DNA of 64,000 bases, from sequence record OL960581. One strand, given 5' to 3'. Made by a program: the position numbers and the translations under genes. This DNA comes from Escherichia phage vB_EcoM_SA20RB. The notes below the pieces were generated by a model. That model was not told the DNA's origin, searched no databases, and was given only the letters and a program-made list of their open reading frames with translations. Below, in pieces: positions 5,279 through 55,520 of this stretch. Position 1 is the first letter of the stretch; each line of letters begins with the position of its first letter.

Positions 5279-5307
5279 TAGATATATTTATTACATGGTA
5301 TTTAGAC

Positions 5308-6819
5308 ATGACTGACATTAAAGTACATTTTTATGATTTTAGTCACGTGAGAATTGATTGTGAAGAAAGTACATTTCATGAACTCCGTGATTTCTTTAGC
5401 TTTGAAGCTGATGGGTATCGTTTTAATCCGAAGTACAAATATGGCCACTGGGATGGACGAATCCGTCTTTTAGATTATAATCGTCTTCTTCCATTCGGCT
5501 TAGTCGGACAAATTAAAAAGTTCTGCGATAACTTTGGCTATAAAGCTTGGATTGACCCACAGATTAACGAAAAAGAAGAATTATCAAGAAAAGATTTTGA
5601 TGAATGGCTTTCTAAGTTAGAAATCTATTCAGGAAATAAAAGAATTGAACCACACTGGTATCAAAAAGATGCAGTGTTCGAAGGATTAGTTAATCGTCGT
5701 AGAATTCTTAATCTTCCAACATCCGCAGGTAAATCTTTAATTCAAGCTTTGCTTGCACGTTATTATTTGGAAAATTATGAAGGTAAAATTCTTATCATTG
5801 TTCCAACAACTGCTCTGACAACTCAGATGGCTGATGACTTTGTTGACTATCGTTTATTCAGTCATGCAATGATAAAGAAAATCGGCGGTGGAGCATCAAA
5901 AGATGATAAATATAAAAATGATGCACCGGTAATTGTTGGTACATGGCAAACTGTAGTAAAACAACCAAAAGAATGGTTCTCACAGTTTGGAATGATGATG
6001 AATGATGAATGCCATCTTGCCACAGGAAAAAGTATTTCATCTATCATATCAGGTTTAAATAACTGCATGTTCAAATTCGGTTTGTCTGGTTCATTACGTG
6101 ATGGCAAAGCCAATATCATGCAGTATGTTGGAATGTTTGGTGAAATATTTAAGCCAGTAACGACTTCTAAATTAATGGAAGATGGACAAGTAACTGAGCT
6201 AAAAATTAATAGTATTTTTCTTCGTTATCCTGATGAGTTCACTACTAAATTAAAGGGAAAAACTTACCAAGAAGAAATAAAAATTATTACTGGGCTCAGT
6301 AAAAGAAATAAATGGATCGCTAAATTAGCTATTAAACTTGCGCAAAAAGATGAAAACGCTTTTGTCATGTTTAAGCATGTATCACATGGTAAAGCTATTT
6401 TCGATTTAATTAAAAATGAATACGATAAAGTTTATTACGTATCAGGGGAAGTTGATACCGAAACACGCAACGTAATGAAAACCCTAGCTGAAAACGGTAA
6501 AGGAATAATTATAGTAGCTAGTTATGGTGTATTTTCTACTGGTATTTCAGTTAAAAATCTGCATCACGTTGTTTTAGCACACGGTGTTAAATCTAAAATT
6601 ATTGTATTGCAAACAATAGGTCGCGTATTACGTAAGCATGGTTCTAAAACAATCGCAACGGTCTGGGACCTCATAGATGATTGCGGTGTTAAGCCAAAAT
6701 CTGCTAATACGAAAAAGAAATATGTTCATTTGAACTATCTTTTAAAACACGGCATTGATCGTATTCAGCGATACGCAGATGAAAAATTTAATTACGTAAT
6801 GAAAACAGTTAATTTATAA
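5308..6819 (+). CDS. uvsW: UvsW DNA/RNA helicase (SF2)
   Basis: 503 aa; Walker A PTSAGKS and DECH box; sequence recognised. Confidence 0.95.
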   Translation: MTDIKVHFYDFSHVRIDCEESTFHELRDFFSFEADGYRFNPKYKYGHWDGRIRLLDYNRLLPFGLVGQIKKFCDNFGYKAWIDPQINEKEELSRKDFDEWLSKLEIYSGNKRIEPHWYQKDAVFEGLVNRRRILNLPTSAGKSLIQALLARYYLENYEGKILIIVPTTALTTQMADDFVDYRLFSHAMIKKIGGGASKDDKYKNDAPVIVGTWQTVVKQPKEWFSQFGMMMNDECHLATGKSISSIISGLNNCMFKFGLSGSLRDGKANIMQYVGMFGEIFKPVTTSKLMEDGQVTELKINSIFLRYPDEFTTKLKGKTYQEEIKIITGLSKRNKWIAKLAIKLAQKDENAFVMFKHVSHGKAIFDLIKNEYDKVYYVSGEVDTETRNVMKTLAENGKGIIIVASYGVFSTGISVKNLHHVVLAHGVKSKIIVLQTIGRVLRKHGSKTIATVWDLIDDCGVKPKSANTKKKYVHLNYLLKHGIDRIQRYADEKFNYVMKTVNL

Positions 6820-15725: not shown

Positions 15726-17782
15726 TACATCTTGAACTTTTTAGACATTCCGTTGATGTTAACCAAAGAAGCTAAGATTTGAGAAACTTCGTTTTCCTCT
15801 TCTTTTGATTCTTCTACAAGGAATTGGTTAAATCCAGTCATTGGACGAACTTCACCAGTTTCCATCAGATGATCGCCATCATATACCGATTCTTCTAATT
15901 GTTCAGAAGGAGGAACGATTGTGCCTTCGATTAGATACTTGTTATAAGCAGTTTCTTTCATCATGTACGTGCTTACTTTATTAATCTTCAACAAAATTCC
16001 ACGCGGTAAAATAACTTCAGCTTCTGATGGAAATCCTGATAAATGACCTGGAACGATAACTTTAATTCGCTCAGCTCCTTTTATTACCATACCTACGCTA
16101 GTTTCAGCATCTTCATTAGCATATGCAGAATGACTACCCATATGCATTAAATCTTCAGCATCAACGGAACCTTCTCCTTCACCAGAAAATACTGCACCGG
16201 AATCATCTAGAGCCATATAGTTTTTACCATGCTCACCGAAGATATTTGGTTTAAGCGATGTTGATACGAAGTTCTTGAAATAGAACATTTTATTTTCAAT
16301 ATTATGACGTAAAGTTTTAAAGGTAACTTCTTGTCCACGGTAAAGTGTAGTTCCTGGAGGAAGAACTGATCCTTTGGCAAAGGCAGAATCCATTGTCTCG
16401 ATGTGTTTAATAGCTCGTTCCATGTATTCTTCACGGGTAGAATCTGGTTTACCCAAGAGGAACGAGTTCATTTCAACATATGAATCTGCACAATAATCTT
16501 CAATTACATCAGACTCAGCCTGAGTCAGTCCTTTTGGAGTTACTTCGGTGCTTGCGTATTCATATGCCTGAGCAGCAGATTCATTAATCAATTTATAAAT
16601 GCTATTCATGACAAATTGAATAATAGCTACTTTTTCGTCTGGCGTGGCTTTAGAACCTTTAACTAAATCATTGATAATTTTCTTAATAACATCAAAGCTA
16701 TTAGAAATATTAATGTCAGCGAGATCGCTTAAAATTTTATCAGTTTTATAATCAAAAAATTCTTTATTCTTTAAATATTCTTTAGAACCTTGATATGTTA
16801 TATCGCTCTGCAGCTTGATAGATGGATCACGTAAACGTGCATGGGCCAATGCAATATGATTTCGGAAGCTTTCTAGTTCATAATCGTTAGATTTAAAACG
16901 AGAAGCACTTCTCATACCACCGATAGCTCCTTTGCCGAAGTTTGAACCAATCTGAATAACACCAGAGTTCATTGGTCCTTCTGCTTTATATACCGGAACT
17001 TTAGATTCAAACTCTTGATATTTCTTGGCAGCGAAGCTATCACCCTGAAGTGAAGCATCGACAGTAGAATATTGAGCTTGTGCTGCTAATCGACGACTAA
17101 TTTTAGTTTTCTGAATAACAGCTTGATCCGTGCGCTTATCATTTTCTAAAGCAATAGAAGCAGCAACAGCAACAGCTTTAGGAACAGCATTACCTGTTTT
17201 AACATCTACATAAACATCACCAACCTTTGATTCAACTTTTGTGAATAACTCAGTTGAAATAGGAGGTACACCTGGAATGTCTTCTAAATTGGCATTTTTA
17301 CGGTAAACCATAATATATGCATACTTTTTATCATAATCCCAAATTTCCTTTAAAAGAACATATCGACCTGCTCCTTTAGTACGTACTAAACGGTCAGCAA
17401 TAACTTGCATTTGACGAGCAGCGCCATTTGTTTTACTTTTTAGTACGCGGAATAGGCATGCGTCAATTTTATACTGTTTCATTGTTTGAAGAGCAGTATC
17501 AAAAACCGCATTAATGACACCAATTGGATTTCCACCCAAGTTTTTAAGTTTAACGAGCGATAGTTTCTCATTGACACCTATCATTACGATATGCATCATT
17601 TTATCGCCTGGCTTAACGTTTTTATTTGTATCACCGCCAGAGGTGTATGTACAAAATCTAAATCCAGGAAGCACACTTTCTTCGCCGGCTTGAATAGCAA
17701 AAATTTGAGGTATTTTATGCTTAGGATTTAAGTTAACAACCGGCGCCGAAGCGCCGTCAAATAATTCTGTAATAAGTTCCAT
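15725..17782 (-). CDS. Alt-family ADP-ribosyltransferase paralogue (possibly the ORF called alt.-2 in T4-type genomes)
   Basis: 685 aa; N-terminus MELITELFD... shared with the adjacent Alt; C-terminal region with an R...STS...E ART-like signature. Confidence 0.8.
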   Translation of the reverse strand: MELITELFDGASAPVVNLNPKHKIPQIFAIQAGEESVLPGFRFCTYTSGGDTNKNVKPGDKMMHIVMIGVNEKLSLVKLKNLGGNPIGVINAVFDTALQTMKQYKIDACLFRVLKSKTNGAARQMQVIADRLVRTKGAGRYVLLKEIWDYDKKYAYIMVYRKNANLEDIPGVPPISTELFTKVESKVGDVYVDVKTGNAVPKAVAVAASIALENDKRTDQAVIQKTKISRRLAAQAQYSTVDASLQGDSFAAKKYQEFESKVPVYKAEGPMNSGVIQIGSNFGKGAIGGMRSASRFKSNDYELESFRNHIALAHARLRDPSIKLQSDITYQGSKEYLKNKEFFDYKTDKILSDLADINISNSFDVIKKIINDLVKGSKATPDEKVAIIQFVMNSIYKLINESAAQAYEYASTEVTPKGLTQAESDVIEDYCADSYVEMNSFLLGKPDSTREEYMERAIKHIETMDSAFAKGSVLPPGTTLYRGQEVTFKTLRHNIENKMFYFKNFVSTSLKPNIFGEHGKNYMALDDSGAVFSGEGEGSVDAEDLMHMGSHSAYANEDAETSVGMVIKGAERIKVIVPGHLSGFPSEAEVILPRGILLKINKVSTYMMKETAYNKYLIEGTIVPPSEQLEESVYDGDHLMETGEVRPMTGFNQFLVEESKEEENEVSQILASLVNINGMSKKFKM

Positions 17783-17785
17783 GAT

Positions 17786-19882
17786 TTATCCTTGAACGAA
17801 CTTGTAAGGCATGTTTGCAATATCTATGCAAGATGCAATAATTCCAAGAGATGATTCTACTTTTTGTTTAACATTTGATGAAACAAATGATGCAAAGTCA
17901 ACTCTGTCTTCTATTTCAATATCACCTGTCATTGCAACTACTTCACCAGTTTCCATTAGACGGTCACCGTCATAAATTACTGATTCGGTGAGTTCTTCCG
18001 TAGTCATAACTTCAGCTTGAATGAGTTTTGTATTATTAGATGTTGTTCCGTCATTATTAGAAGCATCAGTTATTTTATTAACTTTGACCATCAATCCGCG
18101 TGGTAGAATTACTTCAGCTTCTGTTGCTATTCCTAGACTTCCTGGATATACAACATTAACTTTATGAGCTCCATCAATTGCCCATCCTATTTGAACTTTA
18201 ACGTATTCAGGATTTTCTTTATACGCTCTTATTTCGTTTGGATTAATAGTTATTCCTTCTTCATTTTTATCAACTGTCAATTCATTACGAGCTTCTGGTT
18301 CTAAAAGACCAATACCAGCATGTGTAATTCCAAAACGTCCAAAAATGATAGGAGTTAAAGAAGTAGATACAAAATTTCTGAAATAGAACACTTTATTTTT
18401 AACTAGTGCTTCGTATATAGGAGCAGTCATGCTTTGAGCACGATAAACTGTAATGCCTTCTGGTATACGATCACCATTTTCAAAAGCTGAATCTAAGTTA
18501 TTTATAGCAGATTCAATTTCTTTTTCACTCATTACATCATATCGTTCTGGATTGTAACGACCCAAAAGAAGATTATTGATGTCAGTATATCCTGAACCAC
18601 AATACTCTCTAATGCCGCGCTTTTGTGATGGAGTATATTTAGAACCATCACGGGCAATAGTAATATCAATCATTGGACCTGCACCAATTCCAGAAAAGCT
18701 ATAAATCATTCTTTTAAGGAATTTAGTTTTTGCTGCGTTCCAGGAATTTTTAGTTATTTCTTCCCAGACTTCATCTGGCTGCCCTTTACGAGTTTTATTA
18801 TGTTTATCAAGCCAATTATCTTTATATTCTTCAAAGAATTGATTAACAGCTGCTGCGTATTTCTCTAAACATTTTATTGAAGTAGTTGGTTCATTTTTAA
18901 TCGCATTAAGAATTACATCTTTAATTTTTTCAGAAACTTCATTAACCTCACTTTTTGAAAAGAATTTATAATCATAGTGAAGTTCATTTGCAGTTCCTTC
19001 AGCAATAATTTTTGCTGTCTTTGTTTTAGAAGCTAATGAATTAATTCCAAGCTTCATTTCTTCTGCTTCGGGAATTAAAGGAGCGGTAGCAGGTTTATTG
19101 AAATTAGCTGCGGTAGATTCATACTTCTGGAATAATTCACTTTCAAATCTAGAAGATTCTAATGATTGACTTTGCGCAATTGCTCTACGGGAAATTTTAA
19201 CTTTAACGATTACAGCTTGGTCAGAACGTTTATCATTTTCTTGCGCAATAGATGCAGCAATTGCCTCATTTTTAGTTACTTGAGCTCCAGTATCTTTATT
19301 GATATAAACATCACCAACCTTCGATTCAACTTTAGTAAAGAGCTCGGTACTAATTTCCGGAACTCCTGGAATGTCTTCTAGTGATACATTTTTGCGATGT
19401 ATAAGAATATATGCATACTTTTTATCGTAATCCCAAAGTTCCTTAAGAAGGACGTATCTGCCGCCTGAGCGACTACGGATAAGTCTATCAGCAATAAGTT
19501 GAATTTGACGAGCTTGACCAGCAGTTTTAGACTTAAGAATACGGAGCATGCAGGCATCAATTTTATACTGACGCATCGTCTGCATCGCAACAGTAAAAAC
19601 TGAATTGATGTAATTAATTGGGCTTGGACCGAGACCTTTTAATTTAGCAATTGAACCTTTAGCAGTTAATGTAAAAGGAACAATATGCATCATTTTATCG
19701 CCCATTTTTAAATCGCGATTAGTATCACCTCCAGATGTATAGGTACATAAACGAAAGCCTGGTTGTTCAATTGCGTCATCAACATGAACTGAAAAAATTT
19801 GCGGTATTTTCTTCTTTGGATTTAAGTTTGTAATCGGAAGAGTAGTATCTTCGTCAAATAATTCTGTAATGAGTTCCATCAT
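17786..19882 (-). CDS. alt: Alt ADP-ribosyltransferase (packaged head protein)
   Basis: 698-aa ORF (697 if the second Met is used); adjacent to gene 30 as in T4; late promoter upstream. Confidence 0.85.
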   Translation of the reverse strand: MMELITELFDEDTTLPITNLNPKKKIPQIFSVHVDDAIEQPGFRLCTYTSGGDTNRDLKMGDKMMHIVPFTLTAKGSIAKLKGLGPSPINYINSVFTVAMQTMRQYKIDACMLRILKSKTAGQARQIQLIADRLIRSRSGGRYVLLKELWDYDKKYAYILIHRKNVSLEDIPGVPEISTELFTKVESKVGDVYINKDTGAQVTKNEAIAASIAQENDKRSDQAVIVKVKISRRAIAQSQSLESSRFESELFQKYESTAANFNKPATAPLIPEAEEMKLGINSLASKTKTAKIIAEGTANELHYDYKFFSKSEVNEVSEKIKDVILNAIKNEPTTSIKCLEKYAAAVNQFFEEYKDNWLDKHNKTRKGQPDEVWEEITKNSWNAAKTKFLKRMIYSFSGIGAGPMIDITIARDGSKYTPSQKRGIREYCGSGYTDINNLLLGRYNPERYDVMSEKEIESAINNLDSAFENGDRIPEGITVYRAQSMTAPIYEALVKNKVFYFRNFVSTSLTPIIFGRFGITHAGIGLLEPEARNELTVDKNEEGITINPNEIRAYKENPEYVKVQIGWAIDGAHKVNVVYPGSLGIATEAEVILPRGLMVKVNKITDASNNDGTTSNNTKLIQAEVMTTEELTESVIYDGDRLMETGEVVAMTGDIEIEDRVDFASFVSSNVKQKVESSLGIIASCIDIANMPYKFVQG

Positions 19883-33122: not shown

Positions 33123-34292
33123 TTAAAAATATTTTTTAAAACTCATCATAACTTTATCATCAACATCATTATCAATCTGTGCTACAAGGTAAGATGACAG
33201 TTCTACTTCTTGTGGCGCGGATTGAACATTATCAGAATTAAGATATTCACGAATCCAAGGATACGGGTGTTTAACCGGAGCATCGGTAATTGGGCATGGA
33301 AGACCGCACTGTTTCATACGAGATACAGTTAAGTAATCAATAAAGCTCCACATGCTATTTGTATTTAATCCAGGAACATCACCATCTTTAAATAAATGAA
33401 CTGCCCAGTCTTTTTCTTGACGGTTAACTTCCATGAAAATATCAACTGCTTCTTGTTCACACTCTTGGGTGATTTTAACCCATTCATCACCATCAGTGCC
33501 AAGTTGAAGTTGACGAATAATATATTGGGTGCCTTTAAGGTGAAGCTGCTCATCACGTGCAATGAACTTCATAATCTTGGCATTACCTTCCATGATTTCC
33601 ATGTTCTTATGGAAGTTAAAGGTACATGCGAAAGATACATAAAAACGAATAGCTTCCAATGCGTTGATTACGTGCAGGCAGAGGTAAAGAGATTTCATTA
33701 GTGCTCGTTTAGTACATTCAACAACTTTGCCTAACTCTTCTTTACGAAATCCTTCTGATAAAATTCCTTCATAATCTTCAACCGCATTCTGATATTCACG
33801 AGTCTTAACTAGAACATCATCATAATAGCGACCGATAGATTCAGCACGTTTCATGATAGCTTCATCTAGTACAATCTCATCAAATACCTTCGATGGATCA
33901 GTATAAAGATTTCGCATGATATGAGTATATGAACGACTGTGAATAGTTTCACTAAAAGTCCATGTAGCAACCCATGTATCAAGACTTGGGTCTGAAATTA
34001 ATGACATAAGTACAGCAGACGGTGCACGACCCTGAATGCTATCTAGAAGTGATTGATACTTCAAGTTATTAGTAAAAATATCTTGCTGATACTGAGGAAG
34101 CTTGTTAAATTGTGCAGCATCCATCATCAAGTTTACTTCTTCAGGACGCCAGAAAAATGATAATTGCTTTTCGGTTAAATCTTCAAAAACTTTATGGCGT
34201 TGAATATCATAACGCGCAATACCAAGACCTGAACCGAAGAACATAGGTTCTTTTAAAACATCAACTGGATTTGTATTAAAAACTGTGCTCAT
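33123..34292 (-). CDS. nrdB: ribonucleotide reductase beta subunit (uninterrupted, no intron)
   Basis: 389 aa continuous ORF; T4 NrdB as recalled is 388 aa. Confidence 0.95.
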   Translation of the reverse strand: MSTVFNTNPVDVLKEPMFFGSGLGIARYDIQRHKVFEDLTEKQLSFFWRPEEVNLMMDAAQFNKLPQYQQDIFTNNLKYQSLLDSIQGRAPSAVLMSLISDPSLDTWVATWTFSETIHSRSYTHIMRNLYTDPSKVFDEIVLDEAIMKRAESIGRYYDDVLVKTREYQNAVEDYEGILSEGFRKEELGKVVECTKRALMKSLYLCLHVINALEAIRFYVSFACTFNFHKNMEIMEGNAKIMKFIARDEQLHLKGTQYIIRQLQLGTDGDEWVKITQECEQEAVDIFMEVNRQEKDWAVHLFKDGDVPGLNTNSMWSFIDYLTVSRMKQCGLPCPITDAPVKHPYPWIREYLNSDNVQSAPQEVELSSYLVAQIDNDVDDKVMMSFKKYF

Positions 34293-34343
34293 AAATTTTC
34301 CGCTTAGTTAATAGATAGTGACTCGTCCGTGAGTCAAATTATA

Positions 34344-36608
34344 TCATAATTTACAGGATGAACAATCTTCAGCTTTTGGAGTTTCTATTTCATAATCATC
34401 AGTACCAGAACCGTCGCGAGTATTATGATAATAGAAATTTTTTCCGCCAAAATACCAAAAGTACAAAAGGTCATCAATCATTATTGACATTGGAACCTTT
34501 CCTTTTGGAAAAATCTGCGGGTCATAATATGTATTCGCTGAAGCTGATTGACATACCCATTTCAGCATAATAGCTACCTGCGTAAGATAAGGTTTATTAC
34601 CTTTCTTAGCTAATTTCCATGTATAATCATATAGGTCTATGTTATGTTCAATATTGGGCACGACTTGATTAAAGGAACCCTCTTTTGATTCTTTAACAGA
34701 GACTGGTCCACGTGGAGGCTCGATACCGTTTGTACTGTTAGAAACTTGGGAAGATGACTCACATGGCATAAGTGCTGATAATGTGCTATTACGGATGCCA
34801 AAGAGCTTAAGGTCTTCCCGCAGCGACGACCAGTCACAAACGTATTTTGGAGCTGCGATTTGGTCAATCTTTTTATTGTACCAGTCGATAGGTAATTCGC
34901 CTCGAGACCAACGAGTGTCTGAATAATATTCGCAAGGTCCTTTTTCTTTGGCGAGCTTAATGGATGCTTTAATGAGTCCATACTGTAATCTCTCAAATAG
35001 TTCATGTGTTAAATCGTTAGCATCTTCATAAGAAGCAAAGTTACTTGCCAACCAAGCTGCATAGTTAGTAACACCTACACCAAGATTTCGACGCTTTTTA
35101 GCCTTTTCTGCTTCAGGAACTGGATATCCTTGGTAATCCAAAAGATTATCAAGAGCACGAACTTGGACTTCTGCTAATTCATTAATTTTATCTTGGTCTT
35201 GCCAATCGAAGTTATCTAACACAAATGCAGATAACGTGCACAATCCAATTTCAGCATCAGGACTATTCACATCATTTGTTGGAATAGCAATTTCACAGCA
35301 CAAGTTACTCTGACGAATAGGTGCCTTTTCACGAATAAATGGAGTATAGTTATTCGTATTATCAATGAACTGTACATAAATCCTTGCTGTTCCTGATCGT
35401 TCAGTCATGAGCAATTCAAACAGTTCACGGGCTTTAATACGCTTTTTGCGAATATTAGGGTCTTTTTCTGCGGCTTCATACAATTCACGGAAACGGTCTT
35501 GGTCTTTAAAATAAGAATAATAAAGCTCGCCACCCATTTCGTGTGGACTGAACAAAGTAATGTAGTCGTTCTTTCCGAATCGTTCCATCATCAAATCATT
35601 CAGTTGAACGCCATAATCCATATGACGGATACGGTTTTCTTCTACGCCTTTGTTATTTTTCAAAACGAGAAGATTTTCAACTTCCAAATGCCAAATAGGA
35701 TAATAAGCAGTAGCAGCGCCGCCACGAATTCCGCCTTGTGAACATGATTTAACAGCAGTCTGAAAATGTTTCCAAAAAGGAATAACGCCAGTATGACGCA
35801 CTTCACCTGTGCCAATCTTAGAACCTTCAGCACGAATCATACCAACGTTAATGCCAATTCCAGCTCGTTTAGAAATATACTCAACAATTGAAGCAGAAGC
35901 CTTATTGATAGACTTCAGCGAATCACCTGCTTCAATAACAACGCATGAACTAAACTGTCGAGTTGGAGTACGACAACCAGCCATAATAGGAGTTGGCAAT
36001 GAAATCTGTCGAGTAGATACTGCTTCATAAAAACGGATAACGTGTTTTAATCTATCAACAGGTTCATCTTGATGCAATGCCATTCCAATAGTCATAAATG
36101 CAAACTGTGGAGTTTCATAAATTTGACCAGTGGTTTTATCTTTAACTAGATATTTTTCTTTTAATTGCATCGCCCCGGAATAAGTAAATTCCATATCCCG
36201 CTCATGCTTAATTTTTGATTCTAAAAATGTAATTTCTTCGGCAGAATATTTTGACAACAATTCAGGGTCGTATTTACCTTCATTTACACAGTAAGAAATA
36301 TGATCAATAAATGAACGTGGTTCATACTGCCCATAAACATGCTTACGAAGAGCGAACATTAAACAGCGTGCAGCTACATATTGATAATCAGGCTCTTCAA
36401 CTGAAATAGAATTCGCAGCAGCCTTAATGACAATGGTTTGAATGTCATCAGTTGTCATTCCATCACGGAGATATGATTTAATATTTTCATATAATTCATA
36501 AGGATCTACAGATGTTCCTTCAGCTGCCCAAGATAAAACTTTAATAATTTTTTGCGGGTCAAAGCTCTGAGAAACACCACTACTTTTGATAACATTAATT
36601 AATTGCAT
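34344..36608 (-). CDS. nrdA: ribonucleotide reductase alpha subunit
   Basis: 754 aa as in T4. Confidence 0.95.
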   Translation of the reverse strand: MQLINVIKSSGVSQSFDPQKIIKVLSWAAEGTSVDPYELYENIKSYLRDGMTTDDIQTIVIKAAANSISVEEPDYQYVAARCLMFALRKHVYGQYEPRSFIDHISYCVNEGKYDPELLSKYSAEEITFLESKIKHERDMEFTYSGAMQLKEKYLVKDKTTGQIYETPQFAFMTIGMALHQDEPVDRLKHVIRFYEAVSTRQISLPTPIMAGCRTPTRQFSSCVVIEAGDSLKSINKASASIVEYISKRAGIGINVGMIRAEGSKIGTGEVRHTGVIPFWKHFQTAVKSCSQGGIRGGAATAYYPIWHLEVENLLVLKNNKGVEENRIRHMDYGVQLNDLMMERFGKNDYITLFSPHEMGGELYYSYFKDQDRFRELYEAAEKDPNIRKKRIKARELFELLMTERSGTARIYVQFIDNTNNYTPFIREKAPIRQSNLCCEIAIPTNDVNSPDAEIGLCTLSAFVLDNFDWQDQDKINELAEVQVRALDNLLDYQGYPVPEAEKAKKRRNLGVGVTNYAAWLASNFASYEDANDLTHELFERLQYGLIKASIKLAKEKGPCEYYSDTRWSRGELPIDWYNKKIDQIAAPKYVCDWSSLREDLKLFGIRNSTLSALMPCESSSQVSNSTNGIEPPRGPVSVKESKEGSFNQVVPNIEHNIDLYDYTWKLAKKGNKPYLTQVAIMLKWVCQSASANTYYDPQIFPKGKVPMSIMIDDLLYFWYFGGKNFYYHNTRDGSGTDDYEIETPKAEDCSSCKL

Positions 36609-37165: not shown

Positions 37166-38026
37166 TTACACCGCCATCTTTCCTTTCAAGACACCATGGG
37201 ACTGATAATCTTTGAGAACGAAATCTCGTGCTGTCATATATTCAGTTAACCAATACATTTGAGTTTCAGTATCGCATTGACTGAATCCATTAGGCCAATT
37301 AATACTAAGTTTGCATAGATCCATAGGAGTTCTATTTAATATCTCTTTGCATTGCTCAATATGGTTAGAATAAATGTGTGTATTACCACCCGAGAATACC
37401 AAATCGCCCGGAACTAGTTCACACATGTCAGCAACAATATGTAAAAGAGCAGCATAACTCGCGATGTTAAATGGAAGACCGAGGAAAACATCTACCGAAC
37501 GTTGATACCATTGTAGGTCAAGGTATCCGTTACGCACATTAAACTGATAGAACATATGACAAGGTGGTAATGCCATCTGCTTGAGTTCAGCTGGATTCCA
37601 TGCCGACACAATTTGACGTCTATCATTGGGAAATGTTTTAATACGATTAACAACTTCTACAATTTGATCTACACCACCAAAATCACGCCACTGTTTTCCG
37701 TAAATTGGACCAAGTTCACCGCTATGATAACCTAAGTCTTTGGCCTGGTTTTCGTAGTTTTCATCCCAAATTGTTTTTCCTGCAATTAAAGATCCATGAG
37801 TACGTTGACGTAAATCATTTACGTTAGTACTTCCTGATAAGAACCACAATAACTCAGAAATACATGCATTCCAGGCGAGCTTCTTAGTTGTTACTGCAGG
37901 AAAACCTTTAGTTAAATCCCAGCGTAATTTAGTACCGAACAAAGCAATTGTTCCTGTGCCTGTTCGGTCATCAGTTTCATAGCCGTTTTCAAAAATGTCT
38001 TTAATTAAATCTTGGTATTGTTTCAT
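37166..38026 (-). CDS. td: thymidylate synthase (uninterrupted, no group I intron)
   Basis: 286 aa continuous ORF, same length as the spliced T4 Td; catalytic motif PPCH. Confidence 0.95.
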   Translation of the reverse strand: MKQYQDLIKDIFENGYETDDRTGTGTIALFGTKLRWDLTKGFPAVTTKKLAWNACISELLWFLSGSTNVNDLRQRTHGSLIAGKTIWDENYENQAKDLGYHSGELGPIYGKQWRDFGGVDQIVEVVNRIKTFPNDRRQIVSAWNPAELKQMALPPCHMFYQFNVRNGYLDLQWYQRSVDVFLGLPFNIASYAALLHIVADMCELVPGDLVFSGGNTHIYSNHIEQCKEILNRTPMDLCKLSINWPNGFSQCDTETQMYWLTEYMTARDFVLKDYQSHGVLKGKMAV

Positions 38027-44434: not shown

Positions 44435-44442
44435 TATAAATA
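44435..44442 (+). promoter_or_regulatory. late promoter TATAAATA for gene 34
   Basis: Exact TATAAATA 35 nt upstream of the gp34 ATG, in the divergent rnh/34 intergenic region. Confidence 0.65.
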
Positions 44443-48354: not shown

Positions 48355-49470
48355 ATGGAAAAATTTATGGCAGAGTTTGGACAAGGATATGTCCAAACGC
48401 CATTTTTATCGGAAAGTAATTCAGTAAGATACAAAATAAGTATAGCGGGTTCTTGCCCGCTTTCTACAGCAGGACCATACGTTAAATTTCAGGATAATCC
48501 TGTCGGAAATCAAACATTTAGCGCAGGTCTTCATTTAAGAGTTTTTGATCCTTCCACCGGAGCATTAGTTGATAGTAAGTCATATGCTTTTTCGACTTCA
48601 AATGATACTACATCAGCTGCTTTTGTTAGTTTCATGAATTCTTTGACGAATAATAGACTTGTTGCTATATTAACTAACGGAAAGGTTAATTTTCCTCCTG
48701 AAGTAGTATCTTGGCTAAGAGCCGCAGGAACGTCTGCTTTTCCATCTGATTCTATATTGTCAAGATTCGACGTATCATATGCTGCTTTTTACACTTCTTC
48801 TAAAAGAGCTATTGCATTAGAGCATGTTAAATTAAGTAATAGAAAAAGCACAGATGATTATCAAACTATTTTAGATGTTGTATTTGACAGTTTAGAAGAC
48901 GTTGGAGCTACCGGATTTCCAAGAAGAACGTATGAAAGCGTTGATCAATTTATGTCGGCAGTTGGCGGAACTAATAATGAAATTGCGCGATTGCCAACTT
49001 CAGCTGCCATAAGTAAATTATCTGACTATAATTTAATTCCTGGTGATGTTCTTTATCTTAAAGCTCAGTTATATGCTGATGCCGATTTACTTGCGCTTGG
49101 AACTACAAATATATCTATCCGTTTTTATAATGCATCGAATGGATATATTTCTTCAACACAAGCTGAGTTTACCGGACAAGCTGGGTCTTGGGAATTAAAG
49201 GAAGATTATGTAGTTGTTCCAGAAAATGCAGTAGGATTTACGATATACGCACAAAGAACTGCACAAGCCGGTCAAGGTGGCATGAGAAATTTAAGCTTTT
49301 CTGAAGTGTCAAGAAATGGAGGTATTTCGAAACCTGCTGAATTTGGCGTCAATGGTATTCGTGTTAATTATATCTGTGAATCTGCTTCACCTCCGGATAT
49401 AATGGTACTTCCTACGCAAGCATCGTCTAAAACTGGTAAAGTGTTTGGGCAAGAATTTAGAGAAGTATAA
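48355..49470 (+). CDS. 35: long tail fibre hinge connector gp35
   Basis: 371 aa (T4 372). Confidence 0.9.
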   Translation: MEKFMAEFGQGYVQTPFLSESNSVRYKISIAGSCPLSTAGPYVKFQDNPVGNQTFSAGLHLRVFDPSTGALVDSKSYAFSTSNDTTSAAFVSFMNSLTNNRLVAILTNGKVNFPPEVVSWLRAAGTSAFPSDSILSRFDVSYAAFYTSSKRAIALEHVKLSNRKSTDDYQTILDVVFDSLEDVGATGFPRRTYESVDQFMSAVGGTNNEIARLPTSAAISKLSDYNLIPGDVLYLKAQLYADADLLALGTTNISIRFYNASNGYISSTQAEFTGQAGSWELKEDYVVVPENAVGFTIYAQRTAQAGQGGMRNLSFSEVSRNGGISKPAEFGVNGIRVNYICESASPPDIMVLPTQASSKTGKVFGQEFREV

Positions 49471-49475
49471 ATTGA

Positions 49476-49503
49476 GGGAGCCTTCGGGTTCCCTTTTTCT
49501 TTA
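49476..49503 (+). terminator. terminator hairpin GGGAGCC-TTCG-GGTTCCC after gene 35
   Basis: GC stem with UUCG loop followed by TTTTTCTTTAT. Confidence 0.65.
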
Positions 49504-49509
49504 TAAATA
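49502..49509 (+). promoter_or_regulatory. late promoter TATAAATA for gene 36
   Basis: Exact TATAAATA 24 nt upstream of the gp36 ATG. Confidence 0.65.
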
Positions 49510-49532: not shown

Positions 49533-50192
49533 ATGGCTGATTTAAAAGTAGGTTCAACAACCGGAGGCTCTGTCATTTGGCATCAAGGAAATTTTCCATT
49601 GAATCCAGCCGGTGACGATGTACTCTATAAATCATTTAAAATATATTCAGAATATAATAAACCACAAGCTGCTGATAACGATTTCGTTTCTAAAGCTAAT
49701 GGCGGTATTTATCTAAACCGAGTTACCTTTAACCAGGGTATTCAAGTCCCGGGAGCTGGCAATGGTCTGACCGGGATGTTTGTTGGGCCAGGTGATGGAG
49801 CAACTTATGATAATGTTAACCTTGATATAATATCTTGGTATGGTATCGGATTTAAATCATCTCAAGGAACAGGACCTAGGACAATTGTTTTTAACGTTCG
49901 TGACGGTGAAATTTCGGCCCGTGGTAATATAAATTCACAGCGTCAGGTGCGAGCCGAAGCCGCAGCGCCCATTGCCGCAAATGACCTTACTAGAAAGGAC
50001 TATGTTGATGGAGCAATAAATACTGTTACGGCAAATGCGAACTCTAGAGTGTTACGATCTGGCGATACTATGACGGGTAACTTAACCGCACCAAACTTTT
50101 TCTCGCAGAATCCTGCATCTCAACCTTCACACGTTCCGCGATTTGACCAAATCGTAATTAAGGATTCTGTTCAAGATTTCGGCTATTATTAA
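49533..50192 (+). CDS. 36: long tail fibre distal connector gp36
   Basis: 219 aa (T4 221). Confidence 0.9.
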   Translation: MADLKVGSTTGGSVIWHQGNFPLNPAGDDVLYKSFKIYSEYNKPQAADNDFVSKANGGIYLNRVTFNQGIQVPGAGNGLTGMFVGPGDGATYDNVNLDIISWYGIGFKSSQGTGPRTIVFNVRDGEISARGNINSQRQVRAEAAAPIAANDLTRKDYVDGAINTVTANANSRVLRSGDTMTGNLTAPNFFSQNPASQPSHVPRFDQIVIKDSVQDFGYY

Positions 50193-50200
50193 GAGGACTT

Positions 50201-53200
50201 ATGGCTACTTTAAAACAAATACAATTTAAAAGAAGCAAAACCGCAGGTGCACGTCCTGCTGCTTCAGTATTAGCCGAAGGTGAATTGGCTATAAACTTAA
50301 AAGATAGAACACTTTTTACTAAAGATGATTCAGGAAATATCATTGATTTAAGCATTTCCACTGGCGGTAATATCAGTGGAAATATCACTCAAACTGGTGA
50401 TTATTTACAAAATGGAACATATAATCTTAATGGAAACCAGTTTGTTTATGCAGGAAAATATATTGAATTTTTACCTAAAACTGCTGGTAATGGTGCTTGG
50501 GCAAACCAACATAAAAATAAAGCTCCTATCTTTACCGATTTGAGTTCAACTACTTCTACTTCAGAATACCATCCGCTAATTAAACAACGCTATAAAGATG
50601 GAACTTTTTCTGTTGGTACGTTAGTAAATGAAGGAAGTTTTAAAATTCAATATATCAATGAATCTGGTGATTCAAAATATTGGACTTTTAATCGAAACGG
50701 TAGTTTTATTGTAGATAATGGCAGTATTGAAGTCCGTGCAGGTAATATTTCGGCTTCAGGTAATATTAACTCGGCAACTGGATTTGTTTCTGCACCGCGC
50801 GTCAATACAAAAAATATTAACCTGAGTTCTAAAACCTTTATACCGAATAATGACACGGGTTATGACATTGTTTCTTTACCTACTTGGATTTATAATCCAC
50901 CAGCAGATGGTTCTGACCGTGATACAAACGGATTGAACTACATGCGTAAAATGCGGGCTTCAAATACTTCTAGCATTTTCCATGAAATAGTTGACTGTCG
51001 TTCGGGAAAGCCGCAAGAAATTTCTTGGTGGACCGGCGTAGGACCTTCGTCTTTCCAGTGGGCGTTTGATACCTCTGGACGTATTACCGCAGGTAAATCT
51101 ATTTCAGTAGGTCTTCCTGATAATGGTACAAATGGGCGTTATCCTTTAGAGTCTGCCATTTCCATTGGTATTGCAATTGGCGATAACGATACTGGTATTA
51201 AATGGGTCCGTGATGGCGTTTATGACCTGATGGCTAACGGTATTTCATCCGCTACCATTTTGAATAATGGTATTAATAGTACTAAAAAATTGATGGTTGG
51301 TTATAGCCGTGATTCCGGCTCTACTTGGGATTTCCCAAATAACAACCAGGCAATGTTTACTGCGCGTACCGATGTTGATGGTAATAATAACGGCGATGGT
51401 CAGACTCATATCGGTTATAGCAGCAATTCTAAAATGTATCACTATTTCCGTGGCACAGGTCGTATGTCTGTTAGCATGGGCGATGGACTTCTTGTTGAGC
51501 CAGGTATTTTAGATATTAAAACTGGGTCTAATAGAGTTGCTATTAGAGCAGATGGTACATTTGACTCAACCCAACGTATTTCAATGCGCACTGGGTTATT
51601 TTTATCAGGTGATGACAATACCAATGCTCTGTCATTTAAAGCGCCTACAGGTGTTGACGGGACAAAAACCATTAACTGGGATGCAGGTACTCGTAATGGT
51701 CAGAATAAAAATACTGTAACCATTAAAGCGTGGGGTAACTCATTTAACTCAAATCCGGGTAATAGAGAAACTGTATTCGAAGTTTCAGATTCACAAGGTT
51801 ATTATTTCTACGCTCAACGTACTAATCCTGCGCCAGGTCAAACAGTAGGTCCGGTTAACTTTAAATTTAACGGAACTGTCGAAACAGGCCATATCATAGG
51901 CCTTGGTAATATAAGTGCCTCTGGTACAGGTTCTTTTGGTGGCAATGTTACCATGTCTAATGGTTTGTTTGTTCAAGGTGGTTCTTCTATTACTGGACAG
52001 GTAAAAATTGGTGGAACAGCTGATGCATTAAGAATTTGGAATGCTGAATATGGTGCTATTTTCCGCCGTTCGGAAAGTAATCTTTATATTATCCCGACTC
52101 CTAAAGGTGCCGGAGAATCAGGCGGTATAAGTAATCTTAGACCATTGATAATAGAACTGAACACCGGCACAGTTAAAATGTCGCATGATGTTCATTTAGG
52201 AGATTCTGGATCTGGTACAGGATTATTACAAGTAAGTAATAGTCTTAAAACTATTAAAATGATATGTCCAGTAACTATTAATGAACGTAATGCAGCGCTT
52301 ACTTTAGATTCTCCTTCATCTTCTTCTGCTAATTATTTGCAGGGTTCTAAAGCTGGAACTAGATCGTGGTATGTTGGTCTTGGTGGTGCTGGAAATGATT
52401 TATCACTTTATAGCCAATCTTATGGACATGGTCTTGTTATAAGTGATAATTTCACGTCAATCACTAAACCTCTTAAAGTCGGAAATGCCCAACTAGGAAC
52501 TGACGGTAATATTACCAACGGTTCAGGAAACTTTGCCAACTTAAATACCACGTTAAATCGTAAAGTTAATTCTGGATTTATTACTTACGGTTCAACTGCT
52601 GGATGGTATAAGTTTGCAACAGTAACAATGCCACAATCTACTTCGACAGTCTTCTTTAAAATAGTTGGAGGTTCTGGATTTAATAGCGGATTATTCACCC
52701 AATGTAATATTGCTGAAATTGTTTTACGTACTAGTAATGAAAGACCTGCTGACTTAAATGCTGTATTATACACAAGAACATCTGGAATGTATAGCGCAGC
52801 ATTTAGAAATATTTCAGTTAACAATGTCTCTGGAAATACATATGACATTTATGTTTATGCTGGAACATATTGTAATCAACTAGTTTGTGAGTGGTCATGT
52901 ACCGAAAATGCTACTGTTAGTGTTATTGGTATTAACTCATCTACCCAATCACCGGTGGATGCTCTTCCAGATACAGCAGTCGATGGGCAAGTTGCTAATG
53001 TTCTTAATAATTTAGTTGATCGTGGCAAAGTTAAGCGCTTCGAAGCTGATTCTGAAATAGCTATTAATAATCAAACCGGTATTCGTATCAGAAGCAACAG
53101 CGATAAAACTGGTTCTGTTGCTACAATGCTACGAAATGATGGCGGTAGTTTTTATATTCTATTTACAGATAAAAATGCCACCGATGGCGCAGCAACCGTT

Positions 53201-54010
53201 AATGGTGATTGGAATAGTAAACGTCCTTTTGCAATTAACTTAACAACCGGCGAAGTGCTAATGAATAACGGCATAGCTGTTCGCAGCGCTGCTTTATTCT
53301 ATAATAGTATAAATGTCAAAGATAACGGTTCTATTAACTTTGATAAGTCTGGTGCTAACCCAAGAAATATGAGAATATTTCATGCTGGCGATGCTTCTCG
53401 TGGTAACCGTATTGAAATTGCAGATGAAACTAACTATATTGCTTACTTTGAAAAAGCTCCAGGTGGAGCTAACCGCTTTGTAGTAAATAATGCTACTGTA
53501 GCTGGTGTTAATCAAATGAATTCATTTGGTATTAACATCAATAACGCACTTGGTGGAAATAGTATAGCATTTGGTGATAATGATACTGGAATTAAACAAT
53601 CCGGCGACGGACTTCTTGATATTATTACTAACGCCGCACGCCGAATGAGATTCCAGACGGGTGACACTTATTCTGACATGAATATAAATGCCCCAAACGT
53701 TTATATTCGTTCTGATATTCGTTTGAAATCTAATTTCAGACCTATTGAAAATGCTCTTGAAAAGGTTGAACAGCTTGATGGTTTAATCTATGATAAAGCT
53801 GACTATATAGGTGGTGAAATTGTTCAGACTGAAGCGGGTATTGTGGCTCAAACACTGCAAGACGTTTTACCAGAAGCAGTTCGTGAAGTTGAAGACATTA
53901 AGGGTAATAAAATACTCACTGTTTCTTCTCAATCCCAGATTGCTCTTCTAGTTGAAGCTGTGAAAACACTTTCTTCTCGTGTAAAAGAACTTGAATCTAA
54001 ACTTATGTAA
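50201..54010 (+). CDS. 37: long tail fibre distal subunit gp37 (T2-type, with a C-terminal intramolecular chaperone domain)
   Basis: 1269 aa (T4 1026); C-terminal 99 aa starts with SDIRLKSNF, typical of auto-cleaving chaperone domains; a mid-region segment is homologous to gp34. Confidence 0.9.
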   Translation: MATLKQIQFKRSKTAGARPAASVLAEGELAINLKDRTLFTKDDSGNIIDLSISTGGNISGNITQTGDYLQNGTYNLNGNQFVYAGKYIEFLPKTAGNGAWANQHKNKAPIFTDLSSTTSTSEYHPLIKQRYKDGTFSVGTLVNEGSFKIQYINESGDSKYWTFNRNGSFIVDNGSIEVRAGNISASGNINSATGFVSAPRVNTKNINLSSKTFIPNNDTGYDIVSLPTWIYNPPADGSDRDTNGLNYMRKMRASNTSSIFHEIVDCRSGKPQEISWWTGVGPSSFQWAFDTSGRITAGKSISVGLPDNGTNGRYPLESAISIGIAIGDNDTGIKWVRDGVYDLMANGISSATILNNGINSTKKLMVGYSRDSGSTWDFPNNNQAMFTARTDVDGNNNGDGQTHIGYSSNSKMYHYFRGTGRMSVSMGDGLLVEPGILDIKTGSNRVAIRADGTFDSTQRISMRTGLFLSGDDNTNALSFKAPTGVDGTKTINWDAGTRNGQNKNTVTIKAWGNSFNSNPGNRETVFEVSDSQGYYFYAQRTNPAPGQTVGPVNFKFNGTVETGHIIGLGNISASGTGSFGGNVTMSNGLFVQGGSSITGQVKIGGTADALRIWNAEYGAIFRRSESNLYIIPTPKGAGESGGISNLRPLIIELNTGTVKMSHDVHLGDSGSGTGLLQVSNSLKTIKMICPVTINERNAALTLDSPSSSSANYLQGSKAGTRSWYVGLGGAGNDLSLYSQSYGHGLVISDNFTSITKPLKVGNAQLGTDGNITNGSGNFANLNTTLNRKVNSGFITYGSTAGWYKFATVTMPQSTSTVFFKIVGGSGFNSGLFTQCNIAEIVLRTSNERPADLNAVLYTRTSGMYSAAFRNISVNNVSGNTYDIYVYAGTYCNQLVCEWSCTENATVSVIGINSSTQSPVDALPDTAVDGQVANVLNNLVDRGKVKRFEADSEIAINNQTGIRIRSNSDKTGSVATMLRNDGGSFYILFTDKNATDGAATVNGDWNSKRPFAINLTTGEVLMNNGIAVRSAALFYNSINVKDNGSINFDKSGANPRNMRIFHAGDASRGNRIEIADETNYIAYFEKAPGGANRFVVNNATVAGVNQMNSFGININNALGGNSIAFGDNDTGIKQSGDGLLDIITNAARRMRFQTGDTYSDMNINAPNVYIRSDIRLKSNFRPIENALEKVEQLDGLIYDKADYIGGEIVQTEAGIVAQTLQDVLPEAVREVEDIKGNKILTVSSQSQIALLVEAVKTLSSRVKELESKLM
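53711..54007 (+). other. gp37 C-terminal intramolecular chaperone / autoproteolysis domain
   Basis: Motif SDIRLKSNFRPIENALEKVEQLDGLIYDK followed by a helical tail; this family is removed from mature fibres in T2-type phages. Confidence 0.7.
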
Positions 54011-54011
54011 A

Positions 54012-54029
54012 AGAGGGCTTCGGCCCTCT
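54012..54029 (+). other. RNA hairpin AGAGGGC-TTCG-GCCCTCT between genes 37 and 38
   Basis: 7-bp stem with UUCG loop immediately before the gene 38 SD AAGGA. Confidence 0.5.
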
Positions 54030-54040
54030 AAGGATTTTTA

Positions 54041-54832
54041 ATGGCAATTGTAGGTGTTCCTGGCTGGATTGGTGAATCTGCCGTAAATGAAACTGGACAA
54101 CGCTGGATGGATGCTGCGATGAAAGCAGTTCGTGTTTCAGTTCCTGGTTGGATGAGCTCAATGGCTGGACAATCTAAAGAAGTATATTACAGTATTGGTG
54201 CTAGCAATTCTTATAATAAAGACACACTAATAAATTGGATAAAAGCCCAAGGAAGTACTCCTGTTGTTATTACAATTACAGGCAATATCGTTTCTTCATC
54301 GACAGGTCAACCATGCTTAGATTTTCCTAGCTCATTAACTAATGCATACGTTACCTTAAATATTAATAGCGGGGTTCATGTATTAGGTCGGGGAGGAAAT
54401 GGCGGAAGTAACTCTGCCGGTGGAGCAGGCGGAACTGCAATAAATAACGGAATTGGAACTCGTTTAAGAATAAACAATAATGGTATTATCGGTGGTGGTG
54501 GTGGCGGGGGCGCTGGTGCTAGATATCATCCTTTCCCCCAAATGGATATGATATTTGGTGGCGGCGGCGGTCGTCCATTTGGTGCAGCAGGTGCAGCAGG
54601 CGGCGGCGCAGCGGCAGCATCTGCCGCTACAATTTCTGCTCCTGGTAAAGGCACTGTTTCTGGGGTTCACCATGGAGGAGATGGTGGAGATTTGGGGGCT
54701 GCGGGCAAATCTTCATATATTCAAGGTGGTACTGGAGGAACTGTTCACTCGGGTGGCGCAGCAGGTAAAGCTGTTACTGGTAATGCTCCAACTTGGACTA
54801 AAGTTGGTACAATATATGGTGCAAGAGTATAA
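54041..54832 (+). CDS. 38: tail fibre tip adhesin gp38 (T2-type, glycine-rich motifs)
   Basis: 263 aa (T4 gp38 chaperone is 183 aa; T2 adhesin about 262); C-terminal half has poly-Gly blocks (GGGGGGG, GGGGG, GGG) separating variable segments. Confidence 0.85.
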   Translation: MAIVGVPGWIGESAVNETGQRWMDAAMKAVRVSVPGWMSSMAGQSKEVYYSIGASNSYNKDTLINWIKAQGSTPVVITITGNIVSSSTGQPCLDFPSSLTNAYVTLNINSGVHVLGRGGNGGSNSAGGAGGTAINNGIGTRLRINNNGIIGGGGGGGAGARYHPFPQMDMIFGGGGGRPFGAAGAAGGGAAAASAATISAPGKGTVSGVHHGGDGGDLGAAGKSSYIQGGTGGTVHSGGAAGKAVTGNAPTWTKVGTIYGARV

Positions 54833-54863
54833 TTTTGAATAAATATCCTTAAAAGGAGGGTCT

Positions 54864-55520
54864 ATGGCAGCACCTAGAATATCATTTTCGCCCTCTGATA
54901 TTCTGTTTGGTGTTCTAGATCGCTTGTTCAAAGATAACGCTACCGGGAAAGTTCTTGCTTCCCGGGTAGCTGTCGTAATTCTTTTGTTTATAATGGCGAT
55001 TGTTTGGTATAGGGGAGATAGTTTCTTTGAGTACTATAAGCAATCAAAGTATGAAACATACAGTGAAATTATTGAAAAGGAAAGAAATGCACGCTTTGAA
55101 TCTGTCGCCCTGGAACAACTCCAGATAGTTCATATATCATCTGAGGCAGACTTTAGTGCGGTGTATTCTTTCCGCCCTAAAAACTTAAACTATTTTGTTG
55201 ATATTATAGCATATGAAGGAAAATTACCTTCAACAATAAGTGAAAAATCACTTGGAGGATATCCTGTTGATAAAACTATGGATGAATATGCAGTTCATTT
55301 AAATGGACGTCATTATTATTCCAACTCAAAATTTGCTTTTTTACCAACCAAAAAGCCTACTCCCGAAATAAATTACATGTACAGTTGTCCATATTTCAAT
55401 TTGGATAATATCTATGCTGGAACAATAACCATGTACTGGTATAGAAATGATCATATAAGTAATGACCGCCTTGAATCAATATGTGCTCAGGCGGCCAGAA
55501 TATTAGGAAGGGCTAAATAA
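54864..55520 (+). CDS. t: holin T
   Basis: 218 aa as in T4; sequence recognised; single N-terminal TM. Confidence 0.95.
   Translation: MAAPRISFSPSDILFGVLDRLFKDNATGKVLASRVAVVILLFIMAIVWYRGDSFFEYYKQSKYETYSEIIEKERNARFESVALEQLQIVHISSEADFSAVYSFRPKNLNYFVDIIAYEGKLPSTISEKSLGGYPVDKTMDEYAVHLNGRHYYSNSKFAFLPTKKPTPEINYMYSCPYFNLDNIYAGTITMYWYRNDHISNDRLESICAQAARILGRAK

Follow-up and report, generated by a model that had tools for sequence, protein, structure and literature searches.

In phages T2 and T6, the distal subunit of the long tail fiber, gp37, is proteolytically processed and then capped by gp38 (Trojet et al. 2011, citing Drexler, Riede and Henning 1986; PMC3157838). In Salmonella phage S16, gp37 removes its own last 113 residues by a cut at DLNVS^SDRRIKK, a homologous cleavage site (DVYIR^SDGRLKI) is found in Yersinia fPS phages, and the N-terminal tryptophans of gp38 insert into the gp37 tip (PMC7917993). 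Chaperone domains of the endosialidase type employ a catalytic Ser/Lys dyad in i,i+5 spacing, with an arginine that stabilizes the oxyanion (PMC3742443). The RefSeq record of phage T4 notes that the “gp38” of the T2 subfamily is an unrelated adhesin. Here, we analyzed a 64,000-nucleotide stretch of DNA from Escherichia phage vB_EcoM_SA20RB (record OL960581; hereafter the window), in which the genes for the distal tail fiber, g37 and g38, occupy positions 50201..54010 and 54041..54832. We consider it highly likely that this module is the receptor-recognition end of a T2-type Tequatrovirus long tail fiber, with a gp37 that cleaves itself through a Peptidase_S74 domain and a gp38 adhesin whose most likely receptor is the E. 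coli porin Tsx. Judged by its sequence, the module falls into the T2-type gp37/gp38 class on every defining feature that can be tested in silico.

Putative processing domain of gp37 and adhesin domains of gp38

The genes follow the order g36-g37-g38-t, with g38 placed between g37 upstream and the holin gene t downstream (all genes and protein features given here lie on the + strand unless stated otherwise). An original prediction, made from the letters of the window alone, had called a gp37 of 1269 residues and a gp38 of 263 residues, and both reading frames bear this out: on the evidence of reading frame, Pfam matches, and homology or alignments, g37 encodes the 136.1-kDa precursor of the distal long-tail-fiber subunit and g38 a 25.5-kDa monomeric tail-fiber-tip adhesin. 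The same prediction had set apart a C-terminal domain of 99 residues in gp37. The motif SDIRLKSNF indeed begins at residue 1171, nucleotide 53711, and the Pfam domain Peptidase_S74 (“chaperone of endosialidase”) matches residues 1171 to 1228 over the complete profile (positions 1 to 58 of 58; E = 8.2e-14, 52.1 bits, the curated Pfam cutoff being 22 bits). Together with an alignment to S16 and the conservation described below, this match marks residues 1171 to 1269 (53711..54007; 10.9 kDa) as a putative intramolecular chaperone and self-cleaving domain.

Residues 1113 to 1267 of gp37 align with the tip and chaperone of S16 gp37 (6F45_A, E = 1.2e-8), with SDIRLK falling over SDRRIK. We then compared the last ~180 residues of gp37 from eight phages (this phage, T2, T6, REP4, NR1, AV114, ADUt, and G50), among which the string V-Y-I-R-S-D-x-R-L-K is invariant, including in the otherwise divergent T6. 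The string holds a serine and a lysine five residues apart, S1171 and K1176, as well as the nearby R1174, all of them invariant in the eight phages; S1171 and K1176 are the predicted catalytic dyad, with R1174 at their side. By homology with the S16 and fPS sites, the cut is predicted at NVYIR(1170)^S(1171)DIRLK, which would free 99 residues (10.9 kDa) and leave a chain of 125.2 kDa from the 136.1-kDa precursor. The pentapeptide NVYIR (residues 1166 to 1170; 53696..53710), whose last four residues (VYIR) are the same in all eight phages, would thereby become the new C terminus of mature gp37 and the strand on which the N-terminal domain of gp38 docks.

For gp38, the T2-type adhesin family is represented in Pfam by PF05268 and PF21721, each with a curated cutoff of 25 bits. 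The Gp38_N domain matches residues 1 to 42 (E = 7e-18, 64.7 bits) and the GP38 adhesin domain residues 47 to 263 (E = 1.4e-68, 231.5 bits). Over its whole length, gp38 could further be aligned with the structure of the S16 adhesin (6F45_D, E = 3e-47) and with the receptor-binding domain of PP01 gp38 (9V85, E = 1.5e-30). The T2/T6-type adhesin architecture that had been proposed thus finds its counterpart in a family match across the whole protein and in an end-to-end alignment with S16 gp38. When gp38 was compared with the T4 gp38 chaperone, whose length of 183 residues was confirmed, no similarity was detectable (best BLASTP E = 13). The matches of gp37 and gp38 lie far beyond chance. Those of gp38 support its assignment as a T2-type adhesin and not as a T4-type (Tfa-like) chaperone, and its homology to solved structures suffices to establish the family.

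The attachment domain of gp38 (residues 1 to 42; 54041..54166), recognized by the Gp38_N match, is of the T2 subtype, being 95% identical to that of T2 and 67% identical to that of T6, and its tryptophans W9, W22, and W37 are invariant in the gp38 alignment. Glycine makes up 33% of residues 115 to 263 versus 10% of residues 1 to 114. Glycine blocks had been placed from 54383 onward, and the first motif was found three bases away, at residue 116. In this part of the protein, five glycine-rich motifs (GRM1 to GRM5) in conserved order flank four variable segments (HVS1 to HVS4), the identity of the latter ranging from 0 to 100% among 11 phages; motifs and segments were delimited by the alignment and by the sequence itself. 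GRM1 (GRGGNGG, residues 116 to 122; 54386..54406) is followed by the HVS1 region (residues 123 to 150; 54407..54490), whose boundaries we set from the alignment, by GRM2 (GGGGGGG, residues 151 to 157; 54491..54511), and by HVS2 (AGARYHPFPQMDMIF, residues 158 to 172; 54512..54556). GRM3 (GGGGGRPFG, residues 173 to 181; 54557..54583) is 100% identical in 11 of the 11 phages. HVS3 (residues 182 to 211; 54584..54673) differs from the AV114 and Bas43 alleles only at A196G and H211Y, and GRM4 (residues 212 to 222; 54674..54706) differs from them at D214N. HVS4 (residues 223 to 237; 54707..54751) is 100% identical to that of ADUt and AV114 and 20% identical to T6-type alleles, and the protein closes with GRM5 (residues 238 to 245) and a conserved C-terminal motif (together residues 238 to 263; 54752..54829). 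Full-length homology to 6F45_D and 9V85 suggests that this part folds as a polyglycine type II helix sandwich.

Taken together, the module most likely works as follows. Late transcription of g36, g37, and g38 would probably start from a TATAAATA box at 49502. gp37 would be made as a 136-kDa precursor, in which the last 99 residues act as an intramolecular chaperone that nucleates folding of the trimer from its C-terminal end. The Ser1171/Lys1176 dyad would then cut between R1170 and S1171 and free the chaperone, so that mature gp37 would be a 125-kDa chain with NVYIR at its end. A single copy of gp38 would then cap the flat trimeric tip that becomes exposed, a 3:1 stoichiometry carried over from homologs, with the N-terminal domain (W9, W22, and W37) plugging into the gp37 tip. 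The C-terminal domain, as a polyglycine-helix sandwich of the five glycine-rich motifs, would hold the variable segments as distal loops in contact with the receptor.

Two further features of the glycine-rich region were examined and set aside. Three open reading frames (54464-54673 on the − strand, 54555-54842 on the + strand, and 54713-54931 on the − strand) were treated as frame artifacts of this region, with nothing to support them. The G+C content rises to 0.48 to 0.49 at 54250-54999 against ~0.35 around it; an origin from foreign DNA was rejected for this stretch, as it coincides with the glycine-rich specificity domain (GGN codons, 33% glycine), and we attribute the rise to the glycine codons.

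Mosaic structure of the fiber genes and direction of the exchange

When the window was compared with T4 positions 100000-162000 by megablast, ~95% identity was found over 46.7 kb, in agreement with the earlier claim that the remainder of the window is T4-like. The largest gap in this T4 match, and thus its largest discontinuity, is exactly 50348-54838; it starts at codon 50 of g37 and extends six bases beyond the g38 stop. The conserved 5' end of g37 (~49 codons; 50201..50347) retains DNA homology to T4, and its end is the left recombination boundary relative to T4, where this homology ceases at 50347-50350. On the right, DNA homology to T4 resumes with 96.6% identity at 54839..55520, a stretch that includes gene t. 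The genes flanking the exchanged block are 93 to 97% identical to T4.

At the protein level, gp37 is homologous to T4 gp37 over residues 1 to 785 only (41% identity), and its distal 480 residues, beyond residue 785, show no similarity to T4 gp37. The homologous part includes a Gp34_trimer-like shaft domain (residues 518 to 651; 51752..52153; Pfam PF21446, E = 4e-10) and a trimerization region (residues 700 to 772; 52298..52516; Pfam PF20744, E = 8e-10), which also matches PDB 4A0T/4A0U (deposited under the name “tail fiber protein”; E of ~7e-6). Residues 786 to 1165 (52556..53695) form a distal shaft specific to the T2 type, without a counterpart in T4 gp37 and composed of pieces that are 87 to 99% identical to REP4, NR1, Bas39, Sf22, or G50. 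The motif GDNDTGIK(W/Q)xxDG(V/L)xDL occurs twice in gp37, at residues 327 to 344 and 1125 to 1142 (51179-51232 and 53573-53626), and is present in the S16 gp37 tip too. Conserved motifs of this kind were reportedly proposed as recombination sites in T-even fiber genes by Tetart et al. in 1998.

Within the block, g37 is itself a mosaic. Among the phages compared, its closest relative is REP4 at 50283-52080 (89 to 99% identity); NR1, Bas39, and Sf22 at 52083-52530 (91 to 99%, with REP4 at only 45 to 72%); REP4, NR1, G50, Bas39, and Sf22 at 52533-53580 (87 to 97%); and REP4 only at 53583-53880, which covers the tip and the start of the chaperone (96 to 99%, the others reaching 66 to 86%). g38 is closest to ADUt (95 to 99%). 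The piece at 52050-52540, which lacks a REP4 counterpart, is 97% identical to UFV13 and others. We also looked for g37 segments without a close relative and found none, every 150-nucleotide segment being at least 89% identical to at least one of eleven comparison phages. Among 50,697 phage records, no full-length match above ~95% was found for the pairing of this gp37 mosaic with this adhesin. The Mosigvirus AV114 reaches 95 to 97% nucleotide identity over 53133-54832 (distal gp37, chaperone, and gp38), with some segments lower, versus only 69 to 81% in the flanking genes g36 and t, a clear sign of lateral transfer of the distal gp37-gp38 stretch between genera.

The two flanking genes were identified through Pfam: g36 (49533..50192; Phage_T4_gp36, E = 2.5e-33, and an open reading frame) encodes the distal hinge connector between gp37 and the rest of the fiber, and the holin gene t lies at 54864..55520 (Phage_holin_T, E = 2e-117). 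The center of g36 (49683-49982) is 97 to 99% identical to T2, with T4, T6, and eight further T2-type phages reaching only 42 to 67%; as this likeness is to T2 only, the hinge connector carries a T2-type allele of its own, apart from the g37/g38 mosaic. The megablast match to T4 also drops out within g36, at 49751-49958.

The original prediction had read the fiber tip as exchanged by recombination. The exchange as such is well supported by the sharp identity breakpoints and by the internal mosaic of g37, whereas the implied direction is doubtful, as the adhesin form is the commoner of the two. Adhesin-type gp38 was found in 761 phage records versus 297 with T4-type gp38, a number that includes lambdoid Tfa homologs, and Trojet et al. 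(2011) call the adhesin the predominant gp38 form and state that T4 is the likelier recombinant (PMC3157838). We therefore find it, on balance, probable that the T2-type tip is the older resident state, that T4 acquired a lambdoid-type fiber tip together with a Tfa chaperone, and that the gap at 50348-54838 marks an event on the T4 side; the T4 gp38 search also matched tail-fiber assembly proteins of non-T-even phages such as HK630 and 9g, at 27 to 30% identity. Two points count against this scenario: recombination within g37 and g38 of vB_EcoM_SA20RB is independently evident, both from the mosaic and from the tip and gp38 shared with a Mosigvirus, and record counts are subject to isolation bias. 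With adhesin-type tips being the more frequent, it is probably T4 that forms the exception. A replacement in T4 does not conflict with the reading of the module as a T2-type, adhesin-bearing fiber end, with which it is compatible.

gp38 allele and candidate receptor

To assign the variable segments and a receptor, it had been suggested to align gp38 with T2, T6, and Ac3-type adhesins; our gp38 alignment yielded the segments and motifs described above and showed near-identity to alleles typed for Tsx. By tblastn, gp38 is 99.6% identical to that of ADUt and 97 to 98% identical to those of G50, REP4, RB18, Shfl2, Kha5h, TadeuszReichstein (Bas43), and AV109/114/115. A search with the stretch from HVS2 to the C terminus yielded 37 phage records with 93 to 100% identity, belonging to Tequatrovirus and to Mosigvirus. 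The specificity domain is identical to that of ADUt and shows three to five differences from the Tsx-typed alleles of AV114 and Bas43 (A196G, H211Y, D214N, and A261S; Q228K in Bas43 only). In terms of single segments, HVS2 is 100% identical to ADUt, AV114, and Bas43, 47 to 53% identical to T6-type alleles, and 0 to 7% identical to Sf22 and T2; HVS3 is 93% identical to both AV114 and Bas43, and HVS4 is 100% identical to the former and 93% identical to the latter. AV114 and AV115 were reported to recognize Tsx (PMC10844046), and for Bas43, Tsx is the primary receptor and the deep lipopolysaccharide core the terminal receptor (BASEL; PMC8594841, supplementary file 5). Because the specificity domain is nearly identical to those of AV114, AV115, and Bas43, whose Tsx dependence is experimental, Tsx is the best candidate, and the primary receptor is most likely this nucleoside channel, contacted by the loop set of the RB18/Bas43/AV114/ADUt allele.

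The gene structure, the domain homologies, the conserved catalytic and docking residues, the identity of the allele, and the mosaic breakpoints are seen directly in the sequence. Several points weigh against this overall picture. Cleavage, the 3:1 stoichiometry, the fold, and Tsx binding are all read here from sequence; fold, cleavage, virion incorporation, and receptor dependence have been shown experimentally in close relatives, from which we infer them for this phage. No receptor is on record in the literature searched for ADUt, the allele with the identical specificity domain. PST gains OmpA beside Tsx through a few gp38 residues, and in RB68 the single gp38 substitution Q206L switches the receptor from OmpF to OmpW (bioRxiv 10.64898/2026.04.02.716166); since single substitutions in the variable segments can switch the gp38 receptor, the few substitutions (three to five) that set this allele apart from the typed ones could matter. 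Finally, a GC-rich hairpin with a 7-bp stem and a UUCG loop lies in the gap between the two genes g37 and g38 (54012..54029, + strand); it precedes AAGGA as ribosome-binding site and the g38 ATG, and has a fold energy of −13.4 kcal/mol, only 1.7 standard deviations better than shuffled sequence (z = −1.7).

The documented receptor switches through one or a few residues of the variable segments lend some weight to a different outcome, in which the architecture holds but Tsx is not the receptor, or not the sole one, the substitutions at 196, 211, and 214 redirecting or broadening recognition to OmpA or another porin. A case in kind is AV108, which uses OmpA and whose gp38 was described as similar to those of AV109/AV114/AV115, differing in HVS3 and HVS4 (PMC10844046). 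We nevertheless regard this outcome as unlikely: all three receptor-typed members of the allele cluster use Tsx, HVS2 and HVS4 are 100% identical to AV114, and AV108 is absent from the 37 records that share the set of variable segments. Quite unlikely, too, is a subtler variant, in which A196, H211, and D214, located at the HVS3/GRM4 junction and common to ADUt, alter the range of Tsx loop variants recognized or add a second porin, so that the host range would be unlike that of Bas43 and AV114. Neither RB18, Bas43, kaaroe, nor Kha5h is named in the main text of the 2026 receptor-screen preprint.

Far less probable than either, and already effectively refuted, is that gp38 has the same role as in T4, that of an assembly chaperone alone, while the gp37 tip binds the receptor: several database records do name homologs “tail assembly protein” or “assembly catalyst,” but these look like names carried over from T4, and against them stand the lack of similarity to T4 gp38 (E = 13), the full-length matches to the adhesin family and to solved adhesin structures, a gp37 without similarity to T4 gp37 beyond residue 785, and the finding that swapping gp38 alone switches the receptor in related phages (bioRxiv 10.64898/2026.04.02.716166).

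Expression signals, other observations, and closest known systems

The late-promoter-like TATAAATA box (49502..49509, + strand) was recognized by its motif and by its position 24 nucleotides ahead of the g36 start codon; the joint g36-g37-g38 late transcript likely begins there. This box and the hairpin after g37 count as expression signals in favor of the reading given above. A second copy lies at 44435, just upstream of g34, and a motif scan found no such box directly before g37 or g38. As the motif shows no enrichment over the window as a whole (11 copies versus 9.3 expected), we made use of the positions upstream of g34 and g36 only; this placement fits that of the late promoters of T4. 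Sigma-70-like promoter matches occur in the region at the level of shuffled sequence (24 versus 19.5) and were disregarded. Terminator-like matches number 10 in the region, versus 4.2 expected from shuffles. A second GC-rich hairpin with a UUCG tetraloop lies at 49474-49495, directly after g35. In record X04747, a stem-loop of K3 bears the annotation of a potential terminator.

Elsewhere in the window, four stretches are absent relative to T4, as read from jumps in the T4 coordinates where those of the window barely advance (5294-5314, 33625-33628, 34292-34348, and 37186-37478); the T4 annotation of these stretches is segE, the nrdB intron with I-TevIII, mobE, and the td intron with I-TevI. 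Positions 15745-17434 and 18116-19140 had no megablast match to T4; they lie near alt and alt.-1 to alt.-3, and their neighbors are 92 to 96% identical. In gp35, residues 58 to 123 (48526-48723) match the ILEI domain PF15711 above threshold (E = 3e-8), which we take to be the “GG domain” common to phage gp35, FAM3, and POMGnT1.

For annotation, g38 of this phage should read gp38 adhesin, probably with Tsx as primary receptor; “assembly chaperone” and “tail assembly protein,” the names used for T4, should not be passed on to it, as happened in several database records. The module is also an obvious handle for engineering of the host range, given that gp38 swaps already retarget related phages. 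Beyond its use for annotation and host range prediction, the finding is an ordinary one and opens no new biological question: all its elements are already well known, from descriptions that date from 1986 to 2026. The architecture, the cleavage, the layout of glycine-rich motifs and variable segments, the structures 6F45 and 9V85, the typing of this allele for its receptor, and the recombinational shuffling have been published, and this gp38 allele has been published or deposited, which leaves this exact gp37 mosaic as the sole point specific to the phage.

Among the known systems, T4 shares with this phage the N-terminal 785 residues of gp37 (41% identity), its gp38 being an unrelated chaperone of 183 residues. 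The Peptidase_S74 domains of endosialidase, T5 pb1, and MYRF give the same Pfam match and have the same Ser-x4-Lys dyad with arginine, at the C terminus of a trimeric fiber; they differ in that the end released here would be a dock for a separate adhesin and not itself the receptor-binding or enzymatic end. T6 gp38, the classic Tsx binder, belongs to the same family, has the same scaffold of glycine-rich motifs, and probably the same receptor, and retains some likeness in HVS2 (PFPQM) and the second half of HVS3. However, it is only 54% identical overall (HVS2 ~50%, HVS3 37 to 50%, HVS4 20%), and its attachment domain (67% identical) and gp37 tip (39% identical) are of the T6 subtype. Because loops, attachment domain, and tip all differ from T6, the allele described here appears to be a second Tsx-associated loop set, mounted on a T2-type attachment.

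The structural prototype is the gp37 tip-gp38 complex of Salmonella phage S16 (PDB 6F45; Dunne et al. 2018), whose cleavage motif aligns with the one found here; S16 frees 113 residues after DLNVS, compared with the predicted 99 after NVYIR, binds Salmonella OmpC, and has unlike loop sequences. Bas43, AV114/AV115, RB18, Shfl2, G50, REP4, and ADUt share the same gp38 allele (97 to 99.6% identical) and differ in the gp37 to which it is attached, which has 1327 residues in ADUt, 1312 in Bas43, and 1257 in AV114. T2 itself (Drexler, Riede and Henning 1986; Riede et al. 1987) has the same 36-37-38-t order, a long, C-terminally processed gp37 precursor, and the same subtype pairing, with an attachment domain of gp38 that is 95% identical and a last 179 residues of gp37 that are 74% identical. 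T2 departs from the present module in its gp37 of 1341 residues, compared with 1269 here, with a mostly dissimilar central shaft, and in the loops HVS2 to HVS4, which are unrelated (7 to 17% identity), T2 binding FadL/OmpF.

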